Below the pieces are notes generated by a model. The model made no database searches and was not told the DNA's origin. It was given only the letters and a program-made list of their open reading frames with translations. The position numbers and the translations under genes are program-made. DNA of 32,000 nt from Pyrobaculum calidifontis JCM 11548 (GTDB taxonomy: Archaea; Thermoproteota; Thermoprotei; Thermoproteales; Thermoproteaceae), in contig NC_009073.1 in NCBI RefSeq assembly GCF_000015805.1, positions 210,001 through 242,000 on the forward strand, given 5' to 3'. Shown one piece after another: positions 12,414 through 23,314 of the stretch. How positions within the stretch are numbered: the stretch's first letter is position 1; each line of letters starts with the position of its first letter.

Positions 12414-12764
12414 TTAGATGTAGACCGGCGGGACGCCGCCGGACTCTGCAACAACCTCGACTTCCACGCCTATGTAGTACGACTTGACAGTTACTTTCAC
12501 ATATGGGGGATTTACCGCGGCCTTTACCTTTTCCAAGAGGTCCACGGCCAGTTCCTCGTGGAGGATCTCTCTTCCCCTGTAGGAGTCCACCATCTTTTTG
12601 AACTCCTCGATGGCGAGGACGGCGCCGCGGGGTATGTACTCCACAGAGACCTCAAACGAGTCCACTGTCTTGCTGATTGGGCACACAGACTCGCCCCTAG
12701 TCTTGAGGCGCACGAGGCTCGGAGACTTGGAGACCTTGAGCATGGCCGAGAGATATCCCGGCAT
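12414..12764 (-). CDS. queF-L: QueF-like T-fold protein (crenarchaeal QueF-L type, archaeosine-pathway amidinotransferase candidate)
   Basis: The 116-aa ORF has a catalytic-Cys segment ESVCPISKTVDSFEVSVEYIP (compare QueF LCPVTGQPDF...YIP). It also has a QueF-motif-like EEFKKMVDSYRGREILHEE (compare ESKSLKLYLFSFRNHGIFHE). It is single-domain and lacks an NADPH-binding extension. An alternative start is ATG 12743 (MLKVSK...). Confidence 0.65.
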   Translation of the reverse strand: MPGYLSAMLKVSKSPSLVRLKTRGESVCPISKTVDSFEVSVEYIPRGAVLAIEEFKKMVDSYRGREILHEELAVDLLEKVKAAVNPPYVKVTVKSYYIGVEVEVVAESGGVPPVYI

Positions 12765-12792: not shown

Positions 12793-14394
12793 GTGGCCTG
12801 GGCCGTGTGCGTAGTGGAGAAGTGGAGGGAGGACCCCTTCTACGGCGCCGTGGCGGTGGTCAAGGCGGAGGGGTATGTGGTTGGGGATTTCACCGGGGGG
12901 ATCCACGGGGCCTTTAGAGACTACGTAGAGCTGCCGCCCGGCGTGTACACGGTAGGCGGCGAGGAGTGCGCAATAGAGCCGCTCTCCTACCCCTGGCACT
13001 TCTCTGTGCCCTACATGGCGGCGAGGTGGGGCGACGTGGTGGAGCTACGGATATACGCCACGGAGGAGCTCGAGGTGCCAGGCGGCTTCGTGGCCAAGCT
13101 GGCCGACGTGGGGCCCTTCTCTGTCTACCTGGCGGCGACGCGGGGCGCCTCCTATGTTGTAAAGTGTTGCGGCAGGTCGAGGAGGTTCAAGGCGCCGCAC
13201 CCCGGCGAGGCCCCCCGCCTCTCTGCCCTCTACGAGGTTTTGCCAGACAGAGCGGGCCCCGGGCGTGGGTGCAGAGATCTCTCTAAGCAGTTCTGCGGCG
13301 GCACGTTGAAGGACGTGGCGGAGCTGGCGGCGGGGGCCGTGGATTTCGCAGATGGGCTCTACCTCCACCCCATATACCCCGCCATGTCTTACCACAGATA
13401 CGACGTGGTGAACCACTTCGACGTAGACGAGAGAGTGGGCGGCTGGGCGGCCTTCTACGCGCTTAAGGAGGCCTTGTCCAAGGTGGGGATGGGCCTCGTC
13501 TTAGACCTCGTCTTATACCACGTGGCTCCCCGAAGCCCGCTCTTCCCCGACGGGCCCTTTGTTATAAAAAGCGCGGAGGGGGCGAGGCTTGTGAAAAAAC
13601 TTGTCGAAATTCTGCCGCGGGAGGCGTTGCGCGGCGTCTTCTCCGGAGAGCCTCCCTACGAGACTTTTCTAAAGGTGTGGCTCATGCCTAGGCTGGATTA
13701 CACGCGGCGCGAGGCCGTGGAGTACGCCAGGCGGGTGGTGGAGTTCTGGGCCCCACATGTCGACGGGTTTAGGCTAGACGTGGCTCACGGCATTCCGCCC
13801 GAGGCGTGGCGAGCGGCGCTGGAGCCCGCCCGAGGCCGGTACGTCTTTGGAGAACACGTGGGCAACCCCGCACCCTTCTACCACGTAATCAGGGGGTTCA
13901 CGGCCTACTTCTTGTACCACCACGGGGTCAAGCGCCTCGGGGAGGGCGTTGAGGAAGTTGCGAGAGGCGTCAACCGCTACCTGGCTCTGACGCCCCCCTC
14001 GGCGGTTCCCCACATGAACCTCTTCTTAGAAAACCACGACTTAGACAGAGCGGCCTCCTTCCTAAGCCCCGACGCCGTGGTCATGGGCTACGCCCTCATA
14101 TACTCACTGCCCGGAGTCCCCTCAGTCTACATGGGAGGCGAATGCGGCGAGGTGGGACGCGCCGAAGATCACACAAATAGGAGACCCTTCCCCGGCTGCG
14201 GCGGCCATCCGTTGAAGAGCTTTCTCGCCAAGCTCTTCGCCGCGAGGAAGAGGCTGGGCCTCTCCGCGGGGCCTGCATACGCCTACACAAGGCGGGGGAG
14301 ACTGGTGCTGTGGAGGGGAGACGTGGAAGTGGAGGTGGAGAGGGGGCGGGCCGTGTTTACAAGCCCCGGGGGCTCCTTGGAAATCTTTATATAG
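12793..14394 (+). CDS. GH13 family alpha-amylase/neopullulanase-like glycoside hydrolase, cytoplasmic (no signal peptide)
   Basis: The conserved GH13 regions are present: I LVLDLVLYHVA, II VDGFRLDVAHG (nucleophile Asp), III VFGEHVG (acid/base Glu), IV FLENHDLDR. An N-terminal domain of about 170 aa precedes the catalytic barrel. The start is GTG 12793. Confidence 0.9.
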   Translation: MAWAVCVVEKWREDPFYGAVAVVKAEGYVVGDFTGGIHGAFRDYVELPPGVYTVGGEECAIEPLSYPWHFSVPYMAARWGDVVELRIYATEELEVPGGFVAKLADVGPFSVYLAATRGASYVVKCCGRSRRFKAPHPGEAPRLSALYEVLPDRAGPGRGCRDLSKQFCGGTLKDVAELAAGAVDFADGLYLHPIYPAMSYHRYDVVNHFDVDERVGGWAAFYALKEALSKVGMGLVLDLVLYHVAPRSPLFPDGPFVIKSAEGARLVKKLVEILPREALRGVFSGEPPYETFLKVWLMPRLDYTRREAVEYARRVVEFWAPHVDGFRLDVAHGIPPEAWRAALEPARGRYVFGEHVGNPAPFYHVIRGFTAYFLYHHGVKRLGEGVEEVARGVNRYLALTPPSAVPHMNLFLENHDLDRAASFLSPDAVVMGYALIYSLPGVPSVYMGGECGEVGRAEDHTNRRPFPGCGGHPLKSFLAKLFAARKRLGLSAGPAYAYTRRGRLVLWRGDVEVEVERGRAVFTSPGGSLEIFI

Positions 14395-14411
14395 GCGGCG
14401 TGTGTGGCTAT

Positions 14412-15554
14412 ATGGATTTGGGGTTTAGGGGAGTAACGGCGATATATGGGAGGCCCGGCGTTGGGAAAACCACCTTGGCCATGAGGATGGCCCATGAGCG
14501 TTTGCAGAGGGGCGAGAGAGTGCTCTGGGTGTCGCTGTACGAGGACAAGGAGACGTTTCACAAGAACGCCTCTCTCCTGGGCTACGACTTGTCTAAGGCG
14601 GACTTCTGGGACTTCGTCTTCGTCAGAACAGACGCCATGTTAAACCAGATAGTGTCCGCCGTGAGCCAAGAGGCCTACGGCCTAGTGGTAGTGGACTCCA
14701 TGTCGTCGGTGTTGGAGGGCGCCCAGGCGAGGGAGTACTTAATCAACGCCGTGTACAGAGTCTTCAAGCCCGCGGGCGTGGACTTGGTGGCGATAGCCGA
14801 GGAGGAGTCGGCCACCCCCTTGGACTACGTAGTCGACAACTTGCTCCGCCTAGAGATGAGGCTGGCGAATGGGGTCACCGAGCGGCGCATGTACGTGGTC
14901 AAGTCCCGCGGCCGCCGGGCTGGGTACTACGTGGAGTTTGACATTCTTGAGGGCAGGGGGCTCGTCTTCATAGACGAGTTGCCCAAGCCGGCCGCTAGGG
15001 GCGGCTTTGAGGCTTGGAGCGACGCCGTCTCCCAGGCCGTGGGGCCCATTAAAGGCGGGTGCGCGTACCTCTTCCTAGGCGGCGCGTTGACCCCACTCTT
15101 GGCCAAGGCCGCCGCAGACTTGTCTAAGGCGGGGCTGAAGGTGTTGTACAGAGTCCAGGGCAAAGACGCCGAGTCGGTGAGGCGCCTCGTAGAGAAGTTT
15201 GGGGGTAAGGCTGTTGTGCAACGCGCTGCGCCTCGGCCGCAGAGCTACTTTGCCCACGTCATGTCTCTCTACGAGTCGCTCAACGAGACTGGGGCAGACG
15301 TAGTTGTGTCAGACGGCGTGGACTTGGAGTTCCTCCTCTATGGTAAAAAGGCCCTTGACATAAACCTGCACGAGGTCCAGGAGCTGAGGGGGCTTGGGGT
15401 AGCGTTGTTGATTGGGATGAGCAGAGACAGGGGGCTGAGACATGCGGCAGACGCAGTGGTGTCCATACGAGGTGGGGAGGCCGTGGCTCACACGCCGGAG
15501 GGTCGGCGGATCTGCAAAGTGGAGCACGCCCCAGAGCCGGCCCTGGCCTGCTAG
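14412..15554 (+). CDS. KaiC/RadA-like RecA-superfamily ATPase with a degenerate C-terminal second domain (380 aa)
   Basis: The N-terminal half has Walker A GRPGVGKTT and Walker B-like LVVVDS. The C-terminal half has the same beta/alpha rhythm but lacks a P-loop (FLGGALTP). TATA ctttatatagg is centred about 22 nt upstream of ATG 14412. The ORF-track start at 14310 overlaps the GH13 gene. Confidence 0.85.
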   Translation: MDLGFRGVTAIYGRPGVGKTTLAMRMAHERLQRGERVLWVSLYEDKETFHKNASLLGYDLSKADFWDFVFVRTDAMLNQIVSAVSQEAYGLVVVDSMSSVLEGAQAREYLINAVYRVFKPAGVDLVAIAEEESATPLDYVVDNLLRLEMRLANGVTERRMYVVKSRGRRAGYYVEFDILEGRGLVFIDELPKPAARGGFEAWSDAVSQAVGPIKGGCAYLFLGGALTPLLAKAAADLSKAGLKVLYRVQGKDAESVRRLVEKFGGKAVVQRAAPRPQSYFAHVMSLYESLNETGADVVVSDGVDLEFLLYGKKALDINLHEVQELRGLGVALLIGMSRDRGLRHAADAVVSIRGGEAVAHTPEGRRICKVEHAPEPALAC

Positions 15555-15557
15555 CCC

Positions 15558-16745
15558 GTGTGCATTAGGGTAGAGGGGAGGGCGTATCTAAATGGGAGAT
15601 TTACAAGGGTGAGAATAGGCGGCGAGGATTGCAGAACTGTGCAATACTCCAACGACTTCTTGATTCTCCCCGGCATGGTGGACGTCCACGTGCACTTCAG
15701 AGACTGGGAGCTGGCGTACAAGGAGACGCTGGCGGGGGGCGCCGCCGCGGCGCTGGCAGGAGGCGTCGTGGCCGTAGGAGACATGCCTAACACCAGGCCG
15801 CACATAAGGACCGCCGAGCTGTACCAGAGGAGGCTGAGGGAGGGGGCCTCCCTCCCCATAATCTACAGACTGCACATGGGGGTCCCCGCGGACCTCGCAG
15901 AGCTCGACTTGGCGAAGCCCCGCACTGTGAAGATATACCCAGAGGACATAGCCCAATTCGGCTGGGCGCACGTGAAAAGCCTCCTGCAGAAGTGCGCCGA
16001 GTTGAACTGCGTCGCAGTGTTCCACTGCGAAGACCCCCAGCTCTTTAGAGACGGGGAGAGGCCTCCCGAGGCCGAGCGGCTGTGCGTCGAGAAAGTCCGC
16101 GCCCTGGCGGCGGAGACTGGTGCCAGAGTACACCTCACCCACGTCACATTGGCCGAGACTGTAGAGACGGCGAGGGGGTGGGCCACCGTAGACGTAACCC
16201 CCCACCACCTCTACCTCGACACAGAGAACTGTAGAGACAGGGGGCTGTGCCTAGTCAACCCACGCCTGAGGGCCCCCGACGCCAGGAAGAGGCTGCTCGC
16301 AGCGCTTGCGGCTGGTCTCGTGGACATGTATGCCACAGACCACGCCCCGCATACTCTCGCCGAGAAGGCGTCGGAGAACCCCCCGCCGGGGATCTGTAGC
16401 CTCGACGTGGCCCTCGGCCTACTACTAGCCCTCTGGAAGCGCGGCGTCTTGGCCTTGGGCGACGTGGTGCGCCTCTACTCCCACAGGCCCGCCCGCCTCC
16501 TCGGCGTAGACGTAGACCCGCTCGCAGGGACCTTCACCATTGTCAAGCTTGAGGAGTACACAGTCAAGGGCGAAGAGTTTGCGGGCACCTGCAAGTTTAC
16601 CCCCCTCGAGGGGCTCAAAGCGTTTGGCCGCGTAGTGGCCACAGCCGTGCGGGGGGTGGTGTACTTCAGAGACGGCGAGGCGAAGCCCCTCTGGCCTACC
16701 GCAGTCTCCCAGCCTCGAGGGACACCTCCTTCCACTTATCCCTAA
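15558..16745 (+). CDS. pyrC: Dihydroorotase
   Basis: Evidence is the LPGMVDVHVHFRD metal-binding HxH motif, then GGVVAV.DMPNT, FHCED, and ATDHAPH (catalytic Asp). The start is GTG 15558, 3 nt after the stop of the KaiC-like gene. Confidence 0.9.
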   Translation: MCIRVEGRAYLNGRFTRVRIGGEDCRTVQYSNDFLILPGMVDVHVHFRDWELAYKETLAGGAAAALAGGVVAVGDMPNTRPHIRTAELYQRRLREGASLPIIYRLHMGVPADLAELDLAKPRTVKIYPEDIAQFGWAHVKSLLQKCAELNCVAVFHCEDPQLFRDGERPPEAERLCVEKVRALAAETGARVHLTHVTLAETVETARGWATVDVTPHHLYLDTENCRDRGLCLVNPRLRAPDARKRLLAALAAGLVDMYATDHAPHTLAEKASENPPPGICSLDVALGLLLALWKRGVLALGDVVRLYSHRPARLLGVDVDPLAGTFTIVKLEEYTVKGEEFAGTCKFTPLEGLKAFGRVVATAVRGVVYFRDGEAKPLWPTAVSQPRGTPPSTYP

Positions 16746-17172
16746 GGCGCCCCATTATGCTTGGCTCAATGTCTAAGGCCAGCGAGATGTCGACGAGGCG
16801 CTGGTAGCGCGCCGCCACGTCGCGGTACCACCCAAGCACCTTCCTATCGCCGCTCCTCATCTTCTCGTGGAGCCTCTCCATCTCCTCGAGCAGGGCCTCG
16901 GCCATCTTCTCAACGACGGCCTTCGCCAGCGGTCTCACCTCCTTGTACTGCGCCTCGCCCAGCTCAACCACGGCCACCTCGAACATGGGCCCCCTGCCCT
17001 CCTCCTCCCACCTCCTTATCACGTTCCTCTTAACTGCGTCAACCGCCTTGGCCACTTTGTCCCGCGGAGCCCAGACGAGGAAGACCCCCTCCAAAAGCTC
17101 AAGCCCATCCACCATTCTGCCAAGCCTCTTCACTAGCTCCCTGCTGTCAGATTTGACTAATACCAAGAACAC
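16696..17172 (-). CDS. Hypothetical protein (158 aa), N-terminal beta-alpha-beta module followed by a helical region
   Basis: The ORF has host-like codon usage and a GTG start at 17172. An AT-rich TATA-like element is centred 21 nt upstream. I recognised no family motif. Its 3' end overlaps the pyrC 3' end by 50 nt (convergent). Confidence 0.55.
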   Translation of the reverse strand: MFLVLVKSDSRELVKRLGRMVDGLELLEGVFLVWAPRDKVAKAVDAVKRNVIRRWEEEGRGPMFEVAVVELGEAQYKEVRPLAKAVVEKMAEALLEEMERLHEKMRSGDRKVLGWYRDVAARYQRLVDISLALDIEPSIMGRLRDKWKEVSLEAGRLR

Positions 17173-17351: not shown

Positions 17352-18272
17352 GTGAAAATCGCCTTGGGCACCCCCCTCAGCGCTGTGCCAAAGCCCTGGC
17401 TATACTTCGACGTCCCAGCCCTAATTATCAACGCGCTGGAGGCCAAGAGGCGCAACCCCCGCCTAGCGCTGGGGTACGAGGGAGAGCTCTGGCTAGACTC
17501 CGGGGGCTTCCAAGTGCTGAGAAAGGGCCTTCAACTCGCCGTGGAGGAGGTGGCCGAGGTGTATAGGCAGGTGGAGGCCCAGTACTACCTCTCTCTAGAC
17601 GTCCCGCCCTCCCCCACCGACCCGCCAGACGTGGCGGAGAAGAAGTTTGAGAAGACTTACCGAAACTGGGTGCGGCTCTCGAGGGCTGTGGAGGGGGTTG
17701 TTCCAGTGCTCCACGTCTACCGCGACGAGGGGCTCTTCCTCAAGTACCTGAGGCGGTACCTAGACGCCCCCGTCTTAGCCATAGGAGGCGCAGTGCCCTA
17801 CGTATTAATCACGAGGGGGGTGCCGCGGGGGTCCAGGGAGTACGCCTTGAGGCTGATAAAAACGGCGAGAGAGGAGTTCAAGGGCAAGCTCCACGTCCTT
17901 GGGCTGGGCAGCCCCTCAGTCACGCCGATACTTGAGGCGCTCGGCGTAGACAGCACTGACACATCCACTTGGCGAGTCAAGGCGGCCTACGGCAAAGTCA
18001 TACTCCCAGGCGGCGGCGAGAGGCACGTCACTGGGAGAAAGGTGAACTTCGGCCCGAAGAAGGCCCTCGAAGAGGAGCTGGAGGAGCTACGCGCCTTCTT
18101 GGCCCAGACAGGCTTCCCTGCCCTTACGCCGGACTTCAGCCAGCGCTTGGCGGAGTCTTTTGAGTACCGGGCCCTCGTCAATGCGTGGGTGGTGCTCCAC
18201 AGCCGCACGGCGCCTAGGTCCCCCGCCTTTAGGAAGCTGTACGCCGCGCTGGCGGCGCCGCATAGCGGCTAA
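17352..18272 (+). CDS. TGT-fold (tRNA-guanine transglycosylase superfamily) protein without zinc site or C-terminal RNA-binding domains; DpdA-like or split-ArcTGT-like
   Basis: The ordered TGT motifs are LWLDSGGFQVL, YYLSLDVPP, VLAIGGAVP, LHVLGLGSP and GVDSTDTSTW. The protein is 306 aa with zero Cys residues. The start is GTG 17352, with TATA ttatataaa centred 24 nt upstream. Confidence 0.85.
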   Translation: MKIALGTPLSAVPKPWLYFDVPALIINALEAKRRNPRLALGYEGELWLDSGGFQVLRKGLQLAVEEVAEVYRQVEAQYYLSLDVPPSPTDPPDVAEKKFEKTYRNWVRLSRAVEGVVPVLHVYRDEGLFLKYLRRYLDAPVLAIGGAVPYVLITRGVPRGSREYALRLIKTAREEFKGKLHVLGLGSPSVTPILEALGVDSTDTSTWRVKAAYGKVILPGGGERHVTGRKVNFGPKKALEEELEELRAFLAQTGFPALTPDFSQRLAESFEYRALVNAWVVLHSRTAPRSPAFRKLYAALAAPHSG

Positions 18273-18301
18273 ATTTATTAAGTGGGCAAAACACGGTGCC
18301 G

Positions 18302-18724
18302 ATGAAGTACAGGCTGATGGACGTCCTCGCCTGCCCCTACGACAAGACCTTCCCCCTAAGGCTGGTGGTCTTAAAGAGGCGGGAGTACCCCGAGCGGCAG
18401 TACACATGGCCCCGCAAGCCATTCTGCGAGGAGTACTGCGCCTACCGCGACTTAAAGATAAAGGACCACCCAAAGCCAGACACACTGCCCTGCGAGGAGT
18501 GCCACAAGTGGGAAATTGAGGCGGGGGTCATATACTGCCCCACCTGCGGGAGGTGGTACCCCATAATAGAGGAGATCCCCAGGATGTTGCCAGACGAGTT
18601 GCGCAACGAGAAGGAGGAGCTGGAGTTCCTCCGCTCAGTGGCAGAGGACTTGAAGAAGGCGGCGCCAGACATCGCCGAGAAGATACTACAACAGGGAAAG
18701 CCCTTCAACCTATCCACAAAGTAG
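18302..18724 (+). CDS. Trm112-like zinc-ribbon protein, expanded (140 aa) with a Cys-rich insert and a helical C-terminal tail
   Basis: The N-terminus is MKYRLMDVLACP, and the C-terminal half-ribbon is VIYCPTCGRWYPIIEEIPRMLPDE (Trm112/DUF343 signature). The insert carries CEEYC and CEEC. TATA-like aaatttattaag is centred about 25 nt upstream of ATG 18302. GTG 18296 is an alternative start. Confidence 0.75.
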   Translation: MKYRLMDVLACPYDKTFPLRLVVLKRREYPERQYTWPRKPFCEEYCAYRDLKIKDHPKPDTLPCEECHKWEIEAGVIYCPTCGRWYPIIEEIPRMLPDELRNEKEELEFLRSVAEDLKKAAPDIAEKILQQGKPFNLSTK

Positions 18725-22171: not shown

Positions 22172-23314
22172 TTAGAGCTGATAAAGGAGCTGGGCCAGCT
22201 CCTCTAGGTCTAGGGTCTTCGCCACGATTTGCCCCACTCTCTTCATCCCGGCCTTTTTGCCCCACTTAACCTCTATCCCGAGGCCTAGCTCTGGCACTAC
22301 CACGTCTACTTCAAAGCCGTCTCGCCAGTAGCCCACTCTGTGGCTTCTGGCGAAGTGCATGGCCACGGTTGCCTCTAAGAGCGCGGCCTCGTGCGGAATC
22401 TTCGCCCCGGTCCACTTGGCGGCGGCTTGGTAGACCAGTGGGTCTAATAGGTGGATTTTCCTAGGCTTCTTGTAGTCCTCGACCAAGCGGTAGGGGTCAA
22501 TGTAGTAGAGCTGGCGCAGGAGGTAGAGGGACTCCAATAGGTTGAGGTACGAGAAGGCTATCTTGTGCGACCGGAGCTCTGCCTCCTTGGCCAAGGCGTT
22601 GAGAGAGACGGGGCTAGGGGCCGTCTCTAAGACCGCCTTGAGGAGGCGCTTCGCGTACGCCTCGCTCCTCTTAAGCCTCGCCAAGTCGAAGGCGAGGGAG
22701 GAGATCACCACGTCGGCGGCGCCCCCGGGGTTGCCTGAGGTGGCGCAGTTTACCACGGCGGCGGGGTAGCCGCCGCATTTGAGGTAGAGCTCAAGCGCCT
22801 CGGCGAGCTCCGTCCTCCACGCCGTGGGGTCTGCCCCAGGCGGCACGCCTTGCACCTCGGCGAATTTTTTAAAAGAGAGCGGGTACATGACGTAGTCCCG
22901 CCCCCACCCCCTCCGGCCTGGGAAAGTCTCCACCTCCCTCTTGGCGTACATGCTCACCGAGCCTGTGGCAATTATCACGTCGTTTTGAAAGTGCCCCTGG
23001 TCGAGGTAGAACTTGAGGGCCCTGTACCACTCCCTGGGGTAAGTCACCTCGTCCAGGAGCACCAAGGCGCTTGAGACGCCCCACCTCTTCTTAAGTTTTA
23101 CAATCTCGCCGAGGACCTCCCCCAGCTCTCTGTGGTCAGCCGCCATTTCGCAGGTGTAGTAGAAAATAGTACGGGGATCTCTCCCGCCCTCCACGAGCTT
23201 TTTCACGAGCAACTTTAGCAGAGTCGTCTTGCCCACCTGCCGAGGGCCGAAGAGGAAGTGGAGCGCGGGGGGCTTCAGCGAGATTTCGTCAATGAGCTCG
23301 GGCCACCACTTCAC
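22172..23314 (-). CDS. AAA-type ATPase of the archaeal COG1373 class (N-terminal P-loop, C-terminal DUF4143/nuclease-like module)
   Basis: Walker A is GPRQVGKTT and Walker B is VLLDEV. The C-terminal GFEVDVVV...GIEVKWGKK resembles a PD-(D/E)xK-like core. The start is GTG 23314. Confidence 0.85.
   Translation of the reverse strand: MKWWPELIDEISLKPPALHFLFGPRQVGKTTLLKLLVKKLVEGGRDPRTIFYYTCEMAADHRELGEVLGEIVKLKKRWGVSSALVLLDEVTYPREWYRALKFYLDQGHFQNDVIIATGSVSMYAKREVETFPGRRGWGRDYVMYPLSFKKFAEVQGVPPGADPTAWRTELAEALELYLKCGGYPAAVVNCATSGNPGGAADVVISSLAFDLARLKRSEAYAKRLLKAVLETAPSPVSLNALAKEAELRSHKIAFSYLNLLESLYLLRQLYYIDPYRLVEDYKKPRKIHLLDPLVYQAAAKWTGAKIPHEAALLEATVAMHFARSHRVGYWRDGFEVDVVVPELGLGIEVKWGKKAGMKRVGQIVAKTLDLEELAQLLYQL

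Follow-up and report, generated by a model that had tools for sequence, protein, structure and literature searches.

The 32,000-nucleotide stretch of Pyrobaculum calidifontis JCM 11548 DNA analysed here (contig NC_009073.1, positions 210,001 to 242,000; "the window", whose first letter is position 1) is ordinary core genome, carrying genes for PdxS, EF-2, ABC transporters, SOD and a signal peptidase. Among them lies a gene (Table 1) for a 306-aa protein of the tRNA-guanine transglycosylase (TGT) fold, which by sequence, architecture and phylogeny fits the viral DpdA proteins (DpdA1 type, PHROG 887) and for which activity on DNA would be predicted. A first-pass annotation, made from the letters alone, had described the product as a minimal, cysteine-free TGT and had offered two explanations for it: a DpdA-like enzyme, or one piece of a split archaeal TGT (ArcTGT, or TgtA; EC 2.4.2.48), with the Trm112-like protein encoded immediately downstream as a possible supplier of a metal or nucleic-acid-binding module. 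The gene is a cellular, core-genome addition to the known viral DpdA kind.

Table 1. Genes and promoter-like elements at the locus (window coordinates).
Feature	Position	Strand	Remarks
QueF-like (QueF-L) archaeosine-type amidinotransferase gene	12414..12764	-	Pfam QueF E = 4e-8
158-aa helical protein gene, divergent neighbour of TGT-like gene	16696..17172	-	conserved within Pyrobaculum only
TATA-like box TTATATAAA	17324..17332	+	~24 nt 5' of GTG start of TGT-like gene; sequence read
Zinc-less single-domain TGT-fold transglycosylase gene	17352..18272	+	open reading frame (ORF), 306 aa, GTG start, 0 Cys
TATA-like box AAATTTATTAAG	18271..18282	+	~25 nt 5' of Trm112-like gene; sequence read
Trm112-family zinc-ribbon protein gene	18296..18724	+	ORF, 7 Cys; start probably ATG 18302

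All five TGT barrel segments picked out at the first reading are present and in order (LWLDSGGFQVL, residues 46–56; YYLSLDVPP, 78–86; VLAIGGAVP, 141–149; LHVLGLGSP, 180–188; GVDSTDTSTW, 198–207). The count of cysteines is indeed zero, with no CxCxxC...H zinc site, and the reported absence of further domains was likewise borne out: the protein stops at residue 306, and a profile search found no PUA or TGT_C domain either in it or in the neighbouring genes of the window. Across 23 aligned homologs of diverse origin, the invariant residues are D49, S50, G51, G52, Q54, D83, G145, P149, H181, G184, S201 and D203. D49 and D203 line up, in a HMMER alignment, with D95 and D249 of the Pyrococcus horikoshii ArcTGT, which have been named as catalytic residues (PMC5699537), and the GGAVP pocket is aligned to the GGVVP of that enzyme.

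An AlphaFold (AF2) model built on the family alignment (pLDDT 93.6, pTM 0.92) contains one barrel, after whose nucleophile strand a small hairpin and four helices take the place of the ArcTGT zinc subdomain. When the model was compared with solved structures using Foldseek, ArcTGT (PDB 1IQ8) was the best match (E = 8.6e-14, TM 0.70 on the query), with other TGTs next. The Pfam TGT score is 18.8 bits, under the gathering cut-off of 26.3. Because phrog_887 matches the protein at E = 5.8e-24 (86 bits, residues 39–285), the family profile finds full-length 1IQ8 at E = 3e-15 (59 bits), and the pLDDT and Foldseek values are as given above, the similarity to TGTs, as judged by profiles and model, is well beyond chance and the predicted fold is not in doubt.

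A word-indexed search returned 113 homologs of ~300–375 aa in Pyrobaculum, Thermoproteus, Vulcanisaeta, Caldivirga and a few others, and a scan of one genome per species gave 120 loci of the TGT-like gene, 79 of which were kept for context analysis. These 79 cover the Thermoproteales broadly and extend beyond that order to Pyrodictiaceae, Hyperthermus, Ignicoccus pacificus, Ignisphaera, Acidilobaceae, a single Sulfolobaceae genome and Njordarchaeota. In an exhaustive HMMER search the number of cluster representatives was 150 with a threshold of E<=1e-30 and rose to 650 with E<=1e-10; the best 150 are all single-domain proteins of roughly 260–400 aa. Longer matches were considered as fusions of a TGT-like domain with DUF5591 (ArcS-like), which was ruled out, as Pfam shows TGT only in them. 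The ~300-aa zinc-less family is conserved throughout the Thermoproteales, and its distribution in other Thermoproteota and in Njordarchaeota is patchy. Furthermore, the missing zinc ligands are a family-wide property: among 80 cellular members the median number of cysteines is one, 33 have none, CxCxxC occurs in none, and no alignment column exceeds 11% Cys.

A neighbour-joining tree (64 sequences, 324 columns, 100 bootstraps, capped distances) was computed from 55 minimal proteins and nine TgtA catalytic domains. All 55 minimal proteins were split from the nine TgtA sequences with bootstrap 100 and a branch of 0.88, so that the grouping inside the ArcTGT clade for which the first-pass annotation had allowed was not seen. 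The Thermoproteales members form a clade (bootstrap 81) in which the branching follows taxonomy, and the sister clade (bootstrap 95) holds the STSV2, SIRV2, Ignisphaera and Acidilobaceae members, with STSV2, SIRV2 and the Sulfolobaceae chromosomal copy grouped at bootstrap 99. The gene is inherited vertically in the Thermoproteales as part of the core genome, and the DpdA proteins of STSV and SIRV nest inside the cellular crenarchaeal family.

Searching phage and virus genomes with the 306-aa protein (tblastn) gave three groups of matches, namely the Sulfolobus viruses STSV1, STSV2 and STSV4 (38% identity over 96% of the protein, E = 2e-37), the rudiviruses SIRV1-11 and Beppu (~27% identity, E = 1e-7 to 1e-12), and phage CAjan together with the 9g-like phages (27.7% identity over residues 101–295, E = 3e-3). 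The matched genes, STSV2_15 (YP_007348259; 291 aa), SIRV2 gp13 (NP_666547; 310 aa) and CAjan gp35 (YP_009196829; 306 aa), are all entered as DpdA in Supplementary Data 1 of PMC6884629. Their scores against the family profile are 272, 133 and 54 bits, respectively, and against phrog_887 they are 191, 248 and 323 bits. The CAjan alignment spans profile positions 40–297, with the C-terminal subdomain included, whereas the alignments of full-length ArcTGT and of an ArcTGT fragment (50 bits) both end at position 222. Moreover, among predicted viral structures a rudivirus homolog was the best match to the model (E = 1.4e-18, TM 0.71/0.73 over both full lengths).

A zinc-less TGT of ~300 aa is a layout already known from viral DpdA. 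The crenarchaeal-virus proteins (STSV1/STSV2 gp15; SIRV2 gp13/ORF310) are zinc-less single domains of similar, ~300-aa length with full-length homology to the P. calidifontis protein. The phage proteins (CAjan gp35, 9g-like) match it in their 306 residues, in having no CxCxxC and in a homologous C-terminal subdomain after the nucleophile, but the identity is only about 26–28%, and CAjan DpdA does not retain R208 and K210 of the archaeal WRxKAAYGK motif. Phage DpdA genes sit in preQ0-synthesis clusters and their function on DNA has been shown genetically; CAjan DpdA is essential for 7-deazaguanine in the phage DNA (PMC6884629). STSV-2 DNA contains dCDG at 149 per 10^6 nt, though the host is without a Q/G+ pathway, and STSV2_16, which overlaps STSV2_15, is a DUF5591-only 'ArcS2' (PMC10516641). 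Unlike these viral genes, the P. calidifontis gene is chromosomal, vertically inherited and set among housekeeping genes, and it has QueF-L in place of a DUF5591 partner.

On the same kind of evidence the protein is not an ArcTGT, because the TgtA equivalog TIGR00432 scores it at 34.1 bits against a cut-off of 350 (E = 9.7e-9, residues 39–219 only), because neither a zinc site nor C-terminal domains are present, and because of the bootstrap-100 split from TgtA. The P. horikoshii enzyme has the TIM barrel and the catalytic and pocket residues in common with it, but carries in addition a zinc subdomain and the C1, C2 and PUA domains; where these stand in ArcTGT, the 306-aa protein has the small helical C-terminal subdomain that is common to viral DpdAs. 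When residues 85–270 of P. horikoshii ArcTGT were compared with the window and the 79 loci, TGT-like genes were the only matches. A protein search with the ArcTGT fragment, apparently length- or word-limited, gave only matches of <=326 aa, which were partial TgtAs and none of them crenarchaeal. All archaea that contain archaeosine (G+) have an arcTGT homolog (PMC5485725), and S. islandicus, the host of SIRVs, has its own Arc-TGT (PMC6884629). On TgtA in Pyrobaculum, literature searches yielded nothing.

Bacterial DpdA (PDB 7UI4) is a more distant relative, scoring 21 bits against the family profile (E = 1.4e-3). Together with DpdB in the dpd island of Salmonella Montevideo it makes up a TGT-fold, ATPase-dependent system, and relatives of the 306-aa protein pair with HerA-like ATPases; DpdB is ParB-like, however, whereas the ATPase beside family members is of the HerA/FtsK type and comes without the dpdC-K set. 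No dpd genes (dpdB-K context) were found in the window. At E<=1 the 306-aa protein matched neither the model of DpdA4 (DUF6610, haloarchaeal viruses; Pfam PF20314), as defined in PMC10516641, nor the NCBIfam ArcS models NF040592 and NF053620, and in a PADLOC scan it matched no model.

The context of the gene was analysed by clustering all ORFs at <=6 kb from it in the 79 loci. The QueF-like protein reported 4.6 kb away in the window is real, with its catalytic Cys in GESVCPISK, and is 85–89% identical to its Pyrobaculum homologs; a homolog search gave matches in Pyrobaculum and Thermoproteus only, using a word index of limited sensitivity beyond Thermoproteaceae. Across Pyrobaculum, QueF-L lies 3.3–5.8 kb from the TGT-like gene and is never directly adjacent. 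A pathway link between the two becomes more probable than it first seemed, since QueF-L directly adjoins the TGT-like gene in five Thermoproteus-group loci (L007, L009, L012, L014 and L015), at 8–60 nt and in tandem in four and convergent in one. The P. calidifontis QueF-L has been characterised biochemically as a preQ0-tRNA amidinotransferase (PMC5485725). At this locus it is a candidate for the downstream enzyme of the same 7-deazaguanine pathway.

Elsewhere in the family the pairing of DpdA with DUF5591 seen in STSV2 recurs in cellular loci. A DUF5591-only gene follows the TGT-like gene at ~120 nt (within 130 nt) in L064, L067, L072 and L074 and at 4 nt in a Njordarchaeal contig, such a partner is also found in L111-113, and in L057, L062 and L077 DUF5591 lies 1.8–5.2 kb away. 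No DUF5591 neighbour was seen beside Thermoproteales members in the 79-locus context. These partners match the ArcS models at positions 273–404 (NF040592) and 207–339 (NF053620), that is, in the core region and not the N-terminal domain. In Pyrodictiaceae, FolE, the enzyme of the first step toward preQ0, is encoded ~4 kb from the TGT-like gene. It belongs there to a conserved block, ~0.7–5.5 kb upstream of the gene in L045-L071 (Pyrodictiaceae/Hyperthermus), that comprises a SPOUT-like protein, the type I GTP cyclohydrolase FolE, an inorganic pyrophosphatase, an ARMT1/DUF89-like protein, a radical-SAM protein (~255 aa) and a small Cys-rich protein (~130 aa). The radical-SAM neighbour was considered as QueE or RaSEA and set aside, its matches being generic radical-SAM only.

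A second recurrent partner is a divergent HerA-family ATPase (Pfam DUF87, E = 1e-36), which directly adjoins the TGT-like gene in 18 loci in tandem (Vulcanisaeta), convergent (Caldivirga) or divergent (some Desulfurococcales) arrangement and scores 152–195 bits against HerA cut-offs of 800–970. In the Vulcanisaeta JCM drafts L023, L025, L032 and L040 the upstream HerA-like gene is broken into two or three ORFs, while it is intact in other Vulcanisaeta loci; the breaks are probably assembly frameshifts rather than pseudogenes. In a Desulfurococcales metagenome-assembled genome (MAG; L057:3571-10837, JALVFK010000130.1) a divergent operon opposite the TGT-like gene encodes the HerA-like ATPase (521 aa), NurA (392 aa), a protein of the PAPS-reductase/ATP-PPase fold (296 aa), DUF5591 (200 aa), a protein without assigned function (279 aa) and a TatD-family DNase (258 aa). 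The set has the look of a module, so far undescribed, for modification of DNA with 7-deazaguanine or for restriction.

More distant family members were sampled on long contigs. On the metagenomic contig L115 (588-8808) an operon runs in the order TGT-like gene, NurA, HerA (DUF87) and an AAA protein of >1400 aa, and on a second one (L114:2792-10872) the TGT-like gene is accompanied by a Vut_1 transporter, which we take to be of the YhhQ family of preQ0 transporters, an N6/N4 DNA methyltransferase, HerA, NurA and a Cdc6-like gene. The MAG contig CAZHRF010000013.1 (L109:5332-13294) carries two tandem TGT-like genes (389 and 392 aa) flanked by an NgoFVII/PLD-family nuclease, an N6/N4 DNA methyltransferase and the abortive-infection protein AIPR; VapB and TumE are encoded nearby, and the context is that of a restriction/defence island. 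The gene sets that combine a TGT-like gene with HerA(-NurA) or DUF5591 look like uncharacterised DNA modification or defence systems.

Extra copies of the TGT-like gene are present on contigs 21 and 26 of the Pyrobaculum MAG JBKBOT (L117, 24.5 kb, and L118, 21.5 kb), with 63% identity to the P. calidifontis protein and 76% to each other. Both contigs are rich in small ORFs without known domains, including a run of ~180-aa proteins, together with TFIIB, dUTPase/DCD and an Eco57I-type methyltransferase. They gave no DNA or protein match to the catalogued viruses of the phage collection and are probably uncatalogued Thermoproteales viruses or integrated elements.

We put at about even the chance that the gene encodes an active DpdA-type enzyme of guanine/7-deazaguanine base exchange with DNA as its target. 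Of the DpdA-like alternative first proposed, the homology stands, as the nearest characterised relatives are the STSV2, SIRV2 and CAjan DpdAs and the protein falls outside ArcTGT, while the DNA target is a prediction. That target is favoured because of the kinship of the family with viral DpdAs, because all tRNA-binding modules are absent, because the DUF5591-only partners have no PUA domain, because pairing with HerA/NurA, nucleases and DNA methyltransferases is repeated, and because bacterial DpdA, which requires an ATPase, sets a precedent. Because PUA is specific for tRNA, it has been argued that DNA is an unlikely substrate of a canonical host ArcS (PMC6884629). The base would probably be preQ0, because the GGAVP pocket aligns to the GGVVP of ArcTGT.

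From what the analysis established, namely the fold, the catalytic residues, the place in the family, the vertical inheritance within the Thermoproteales and the contexts of the gene, we infer the activity, the base, the target and the part of QueF-L as follows. The barrel would keep the general acid D49, the substrate-binding D83, the GGxxP pocket and the nucleophile D203. D203 would attack C1' of the target deoxyguanosine to form a covalent glycosyl intermediate from which guanine leaves, and host-made preQ0 would be inserted in its place, whose nitrile QueF-L may then amidate to give dG+. In relatives, the HerA-like ATPase, sometimes together with NurA, probably gives access to the DNA, like DpdB for bacterial DpdA.

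A wider proposal, which we advance tentatively and consider somewhat doubtful, is that Thermoproteales constitutively carry 7-deazaguanine (dPreQ0, converted to dG+ by QueF-L) in their own chromosome through a core DpdA-type enzyme, and that related lineages have an undescribed modification-restriction system coupled to HerA-NurA. If true, no earlier DNA hypermodification of this kind would be known from archaeal cells, and 7-deazaguanine might be a self-mark or a protection of DNA in hyperthermophiles, copied by viruses with close homologs. Bacterial dpd islands and viruses are the known settings of 7-deazaguanine in DNA; in the publications consulted, the sole candidate from archaeal cells is a possible haloarchaeal host DpdA, mentioned in passing. 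These publications catalogue the viral proteins and do not discuss the chromosomal Thermoproteales clade, the QueF-L link or the HerA(-NurA)/DUF5591 sets. With the present results, the DpdA of crenarchaeal viruses gains a chromosomal counterpart that is well conserved throughout an order of hyperthermophiles, and the cellular family that encloses the STSV and SIRV enzymes is identified. The question of dPreQ0 or dG+ in genomic DNA is directly testable, since P. calidifontis, P. aerophilum, T. tenax and V. distributa are cultivable.

Several observations weigh against DNA as the target. The raw profile score of ArcTGT (59 bits) is about level with that of CAjan DpdA (54 bits), and the bacterial DpdA models (Pfam PF23859, NCBIfam NF041059 and PADLOC) gave no match at E<=1. 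The modification of STSV-2 DNA is low-level, at the 149 per 10^6 nt given above, and the pathway behind it is unexplained (PMC10516641). QueF-L, the sole pathway-linked neighbour in Thermoproteaceae, is experimentally a tRNA enzyme (PMC5485725). The neighbours of the TGT-like gene in the window, as in other Pyrobaculum loci, are housekeeping genes, and it has no ATPase, nuclease or methyltransferase partner there; a HerA-like gene in particular is absent from the window.

The foremost competing explanation, to which we allow a sizeable minority chance, is that the protein is a guanine transglycosylase of the archaeosine pathway acting on tRNA or another RNA. It would be either the working ArcTGT of the Thermoproteales or an additional enzyme for a different site or RNA, and the preQ0 that it inserts would be turned into G+ by QueF-L. 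QueF-L acts on preQ0-tRNA and is encoded directly beside the TGT-like gene in the five Thermoproteus-group loci, where the two look co-transcribed in Thermoproteus, and within 3–6 kb in Pyrobaculum; the two genes occur together in the same complete genomes. The TGT-like gene belongs to the vertically inherited core genome, has housekeeping genes around it and lacks a restriction-type partner in Pyrobaculum, and its product matches ArcTGT in catalytic and pocket residues and has it as its best solved-structure match. However, every ArcTGT element beyond the barrel is missing (the zinc subdomain as well as C1, C2 and PUA), the protein reaches 34 of 350 bits for TgtA, and the family is cleanly split from TgtA in the tree. 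Among characterised proteins, the nearest to it are viral DpdAs linked to DNA, one of them from a virus whose host is without a G+ pathway, and distant family members stand beside HerA/NurA, nucleases and DNA methyltransferases. A further, indirect point is that the 'catalytic domains of arcTGT' reported in Crenarchaeota without ArcS (PMC5485725) imply multi-domain ArcTGTs there. Should its substrate be tRNA after all, no smaller tRNA-guanine transglycosylase would be known, and the protein would work without either zinc or tRNA-binding domains.

Far less probable, in our view, is that the protein is a TGT-like module without transglycosylase activity, for example a counterpart of the ArcS N-terminal domain that binds preQ0-modified nucleic acid for a partner enzyme. 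The N-terminal domain of ArcS is TGT-like and sometimes separately encoded (PMC10516641), and genes for DUF5591, the ArcS core, directly follow family members in several loci. Nevertheless, both catalytic aspartates and the pocket positions are invariant across the family, neither NCBIfam ArcS model is matched, and the Thermoproteales members are without a DUF5591 neighbour.

Least credible of all, and largely refuted, is a split ArcTGT to which the Trm112-like protein supplies a zinc or nucleic-acid module: the two genes are close in the window and the neighbour has seven Cys in a zinc-ribbon fold, but their adjacency is unstable and confined to Thermoproteaceae, each has its own TATA-like box, the full zinc-less architecture is common to stand-alone viral DpdAs, and no PUA or C-domain gene lies near.

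As first described, the Trm112-like gene starts closely downstream, 23–29 nt past the stop codon of the TGT-like gene, and its product is a Trm112-like zinc ribbon (Pfam Trm112p PF03966, 47 bits against a cut-off of 22, E = 2.4e-12), the NCBIfam Trm112_arch score of 45 bits being under the cut-off of 77. Its homologs begin MKYRLMDVL, which corresponds to ATG 18302. The TATA-like box ascribed to it was found (AAATTTATTAAG) and would serve as its promoter, and TTATATAAA probably acts as a leaderless-type archaeal promoter of the TGT-like gene, in keeping with the spacing generally known for archaeal promoters. Conservation of the gene pair holds in part: the Trm112-like gene is near the TGT-like gene in 10 Pyrobaculum/Thermoproteus loci only, at distances of 1–2086 nt, sharing its strand in five of them and lying on the other strand in the remaining five, but it is absent beside family members in the Vulcanisaeta, Caldivirga, Pyrodictiaceae and Njordarchaeota loci and in the viruses examined. 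The adjacency is local synteny and not an operon, and the Trm112-like protein is a neighbour rather than a demonstrated partner. Trm112 itself, a methyltransferase activator, has ~60 aa, whereas the downstream protein has 140–142 aa, its ribbon split by an insertion and followed by a helical C-terminal tail. The insertion comprises roughly 50 residues with extra Cys inside the zinc ribbon. The protein is 76–89% identical across Pyrobaculum and Thermoproteus, which exceeds the conservation of the TGT-like protein.

Two further ATPases are encoded in the window, a KaiC/RecA-superfamily protein (414 aa; 14310-15554, + strand) between QueF-L and the TGT-like gene, which is syntenic in Pyrobaculum, and an AAA_14/DUF4143 protein (22172-23314, - strand) further downstream; nothing ties either to the TGT-like gene. 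The divergent 158-aa protein matches no significant Pfam, NCBIfam or PADLOC family. By tblastn, its gene lies upstream in the opposite orientation in all eight Pyrobaculum-group loci with flanking sequence, with weak homologs 7–9 kb away in three other Thermoproteales loci, and a functional link with the TGT-like gene is possible.

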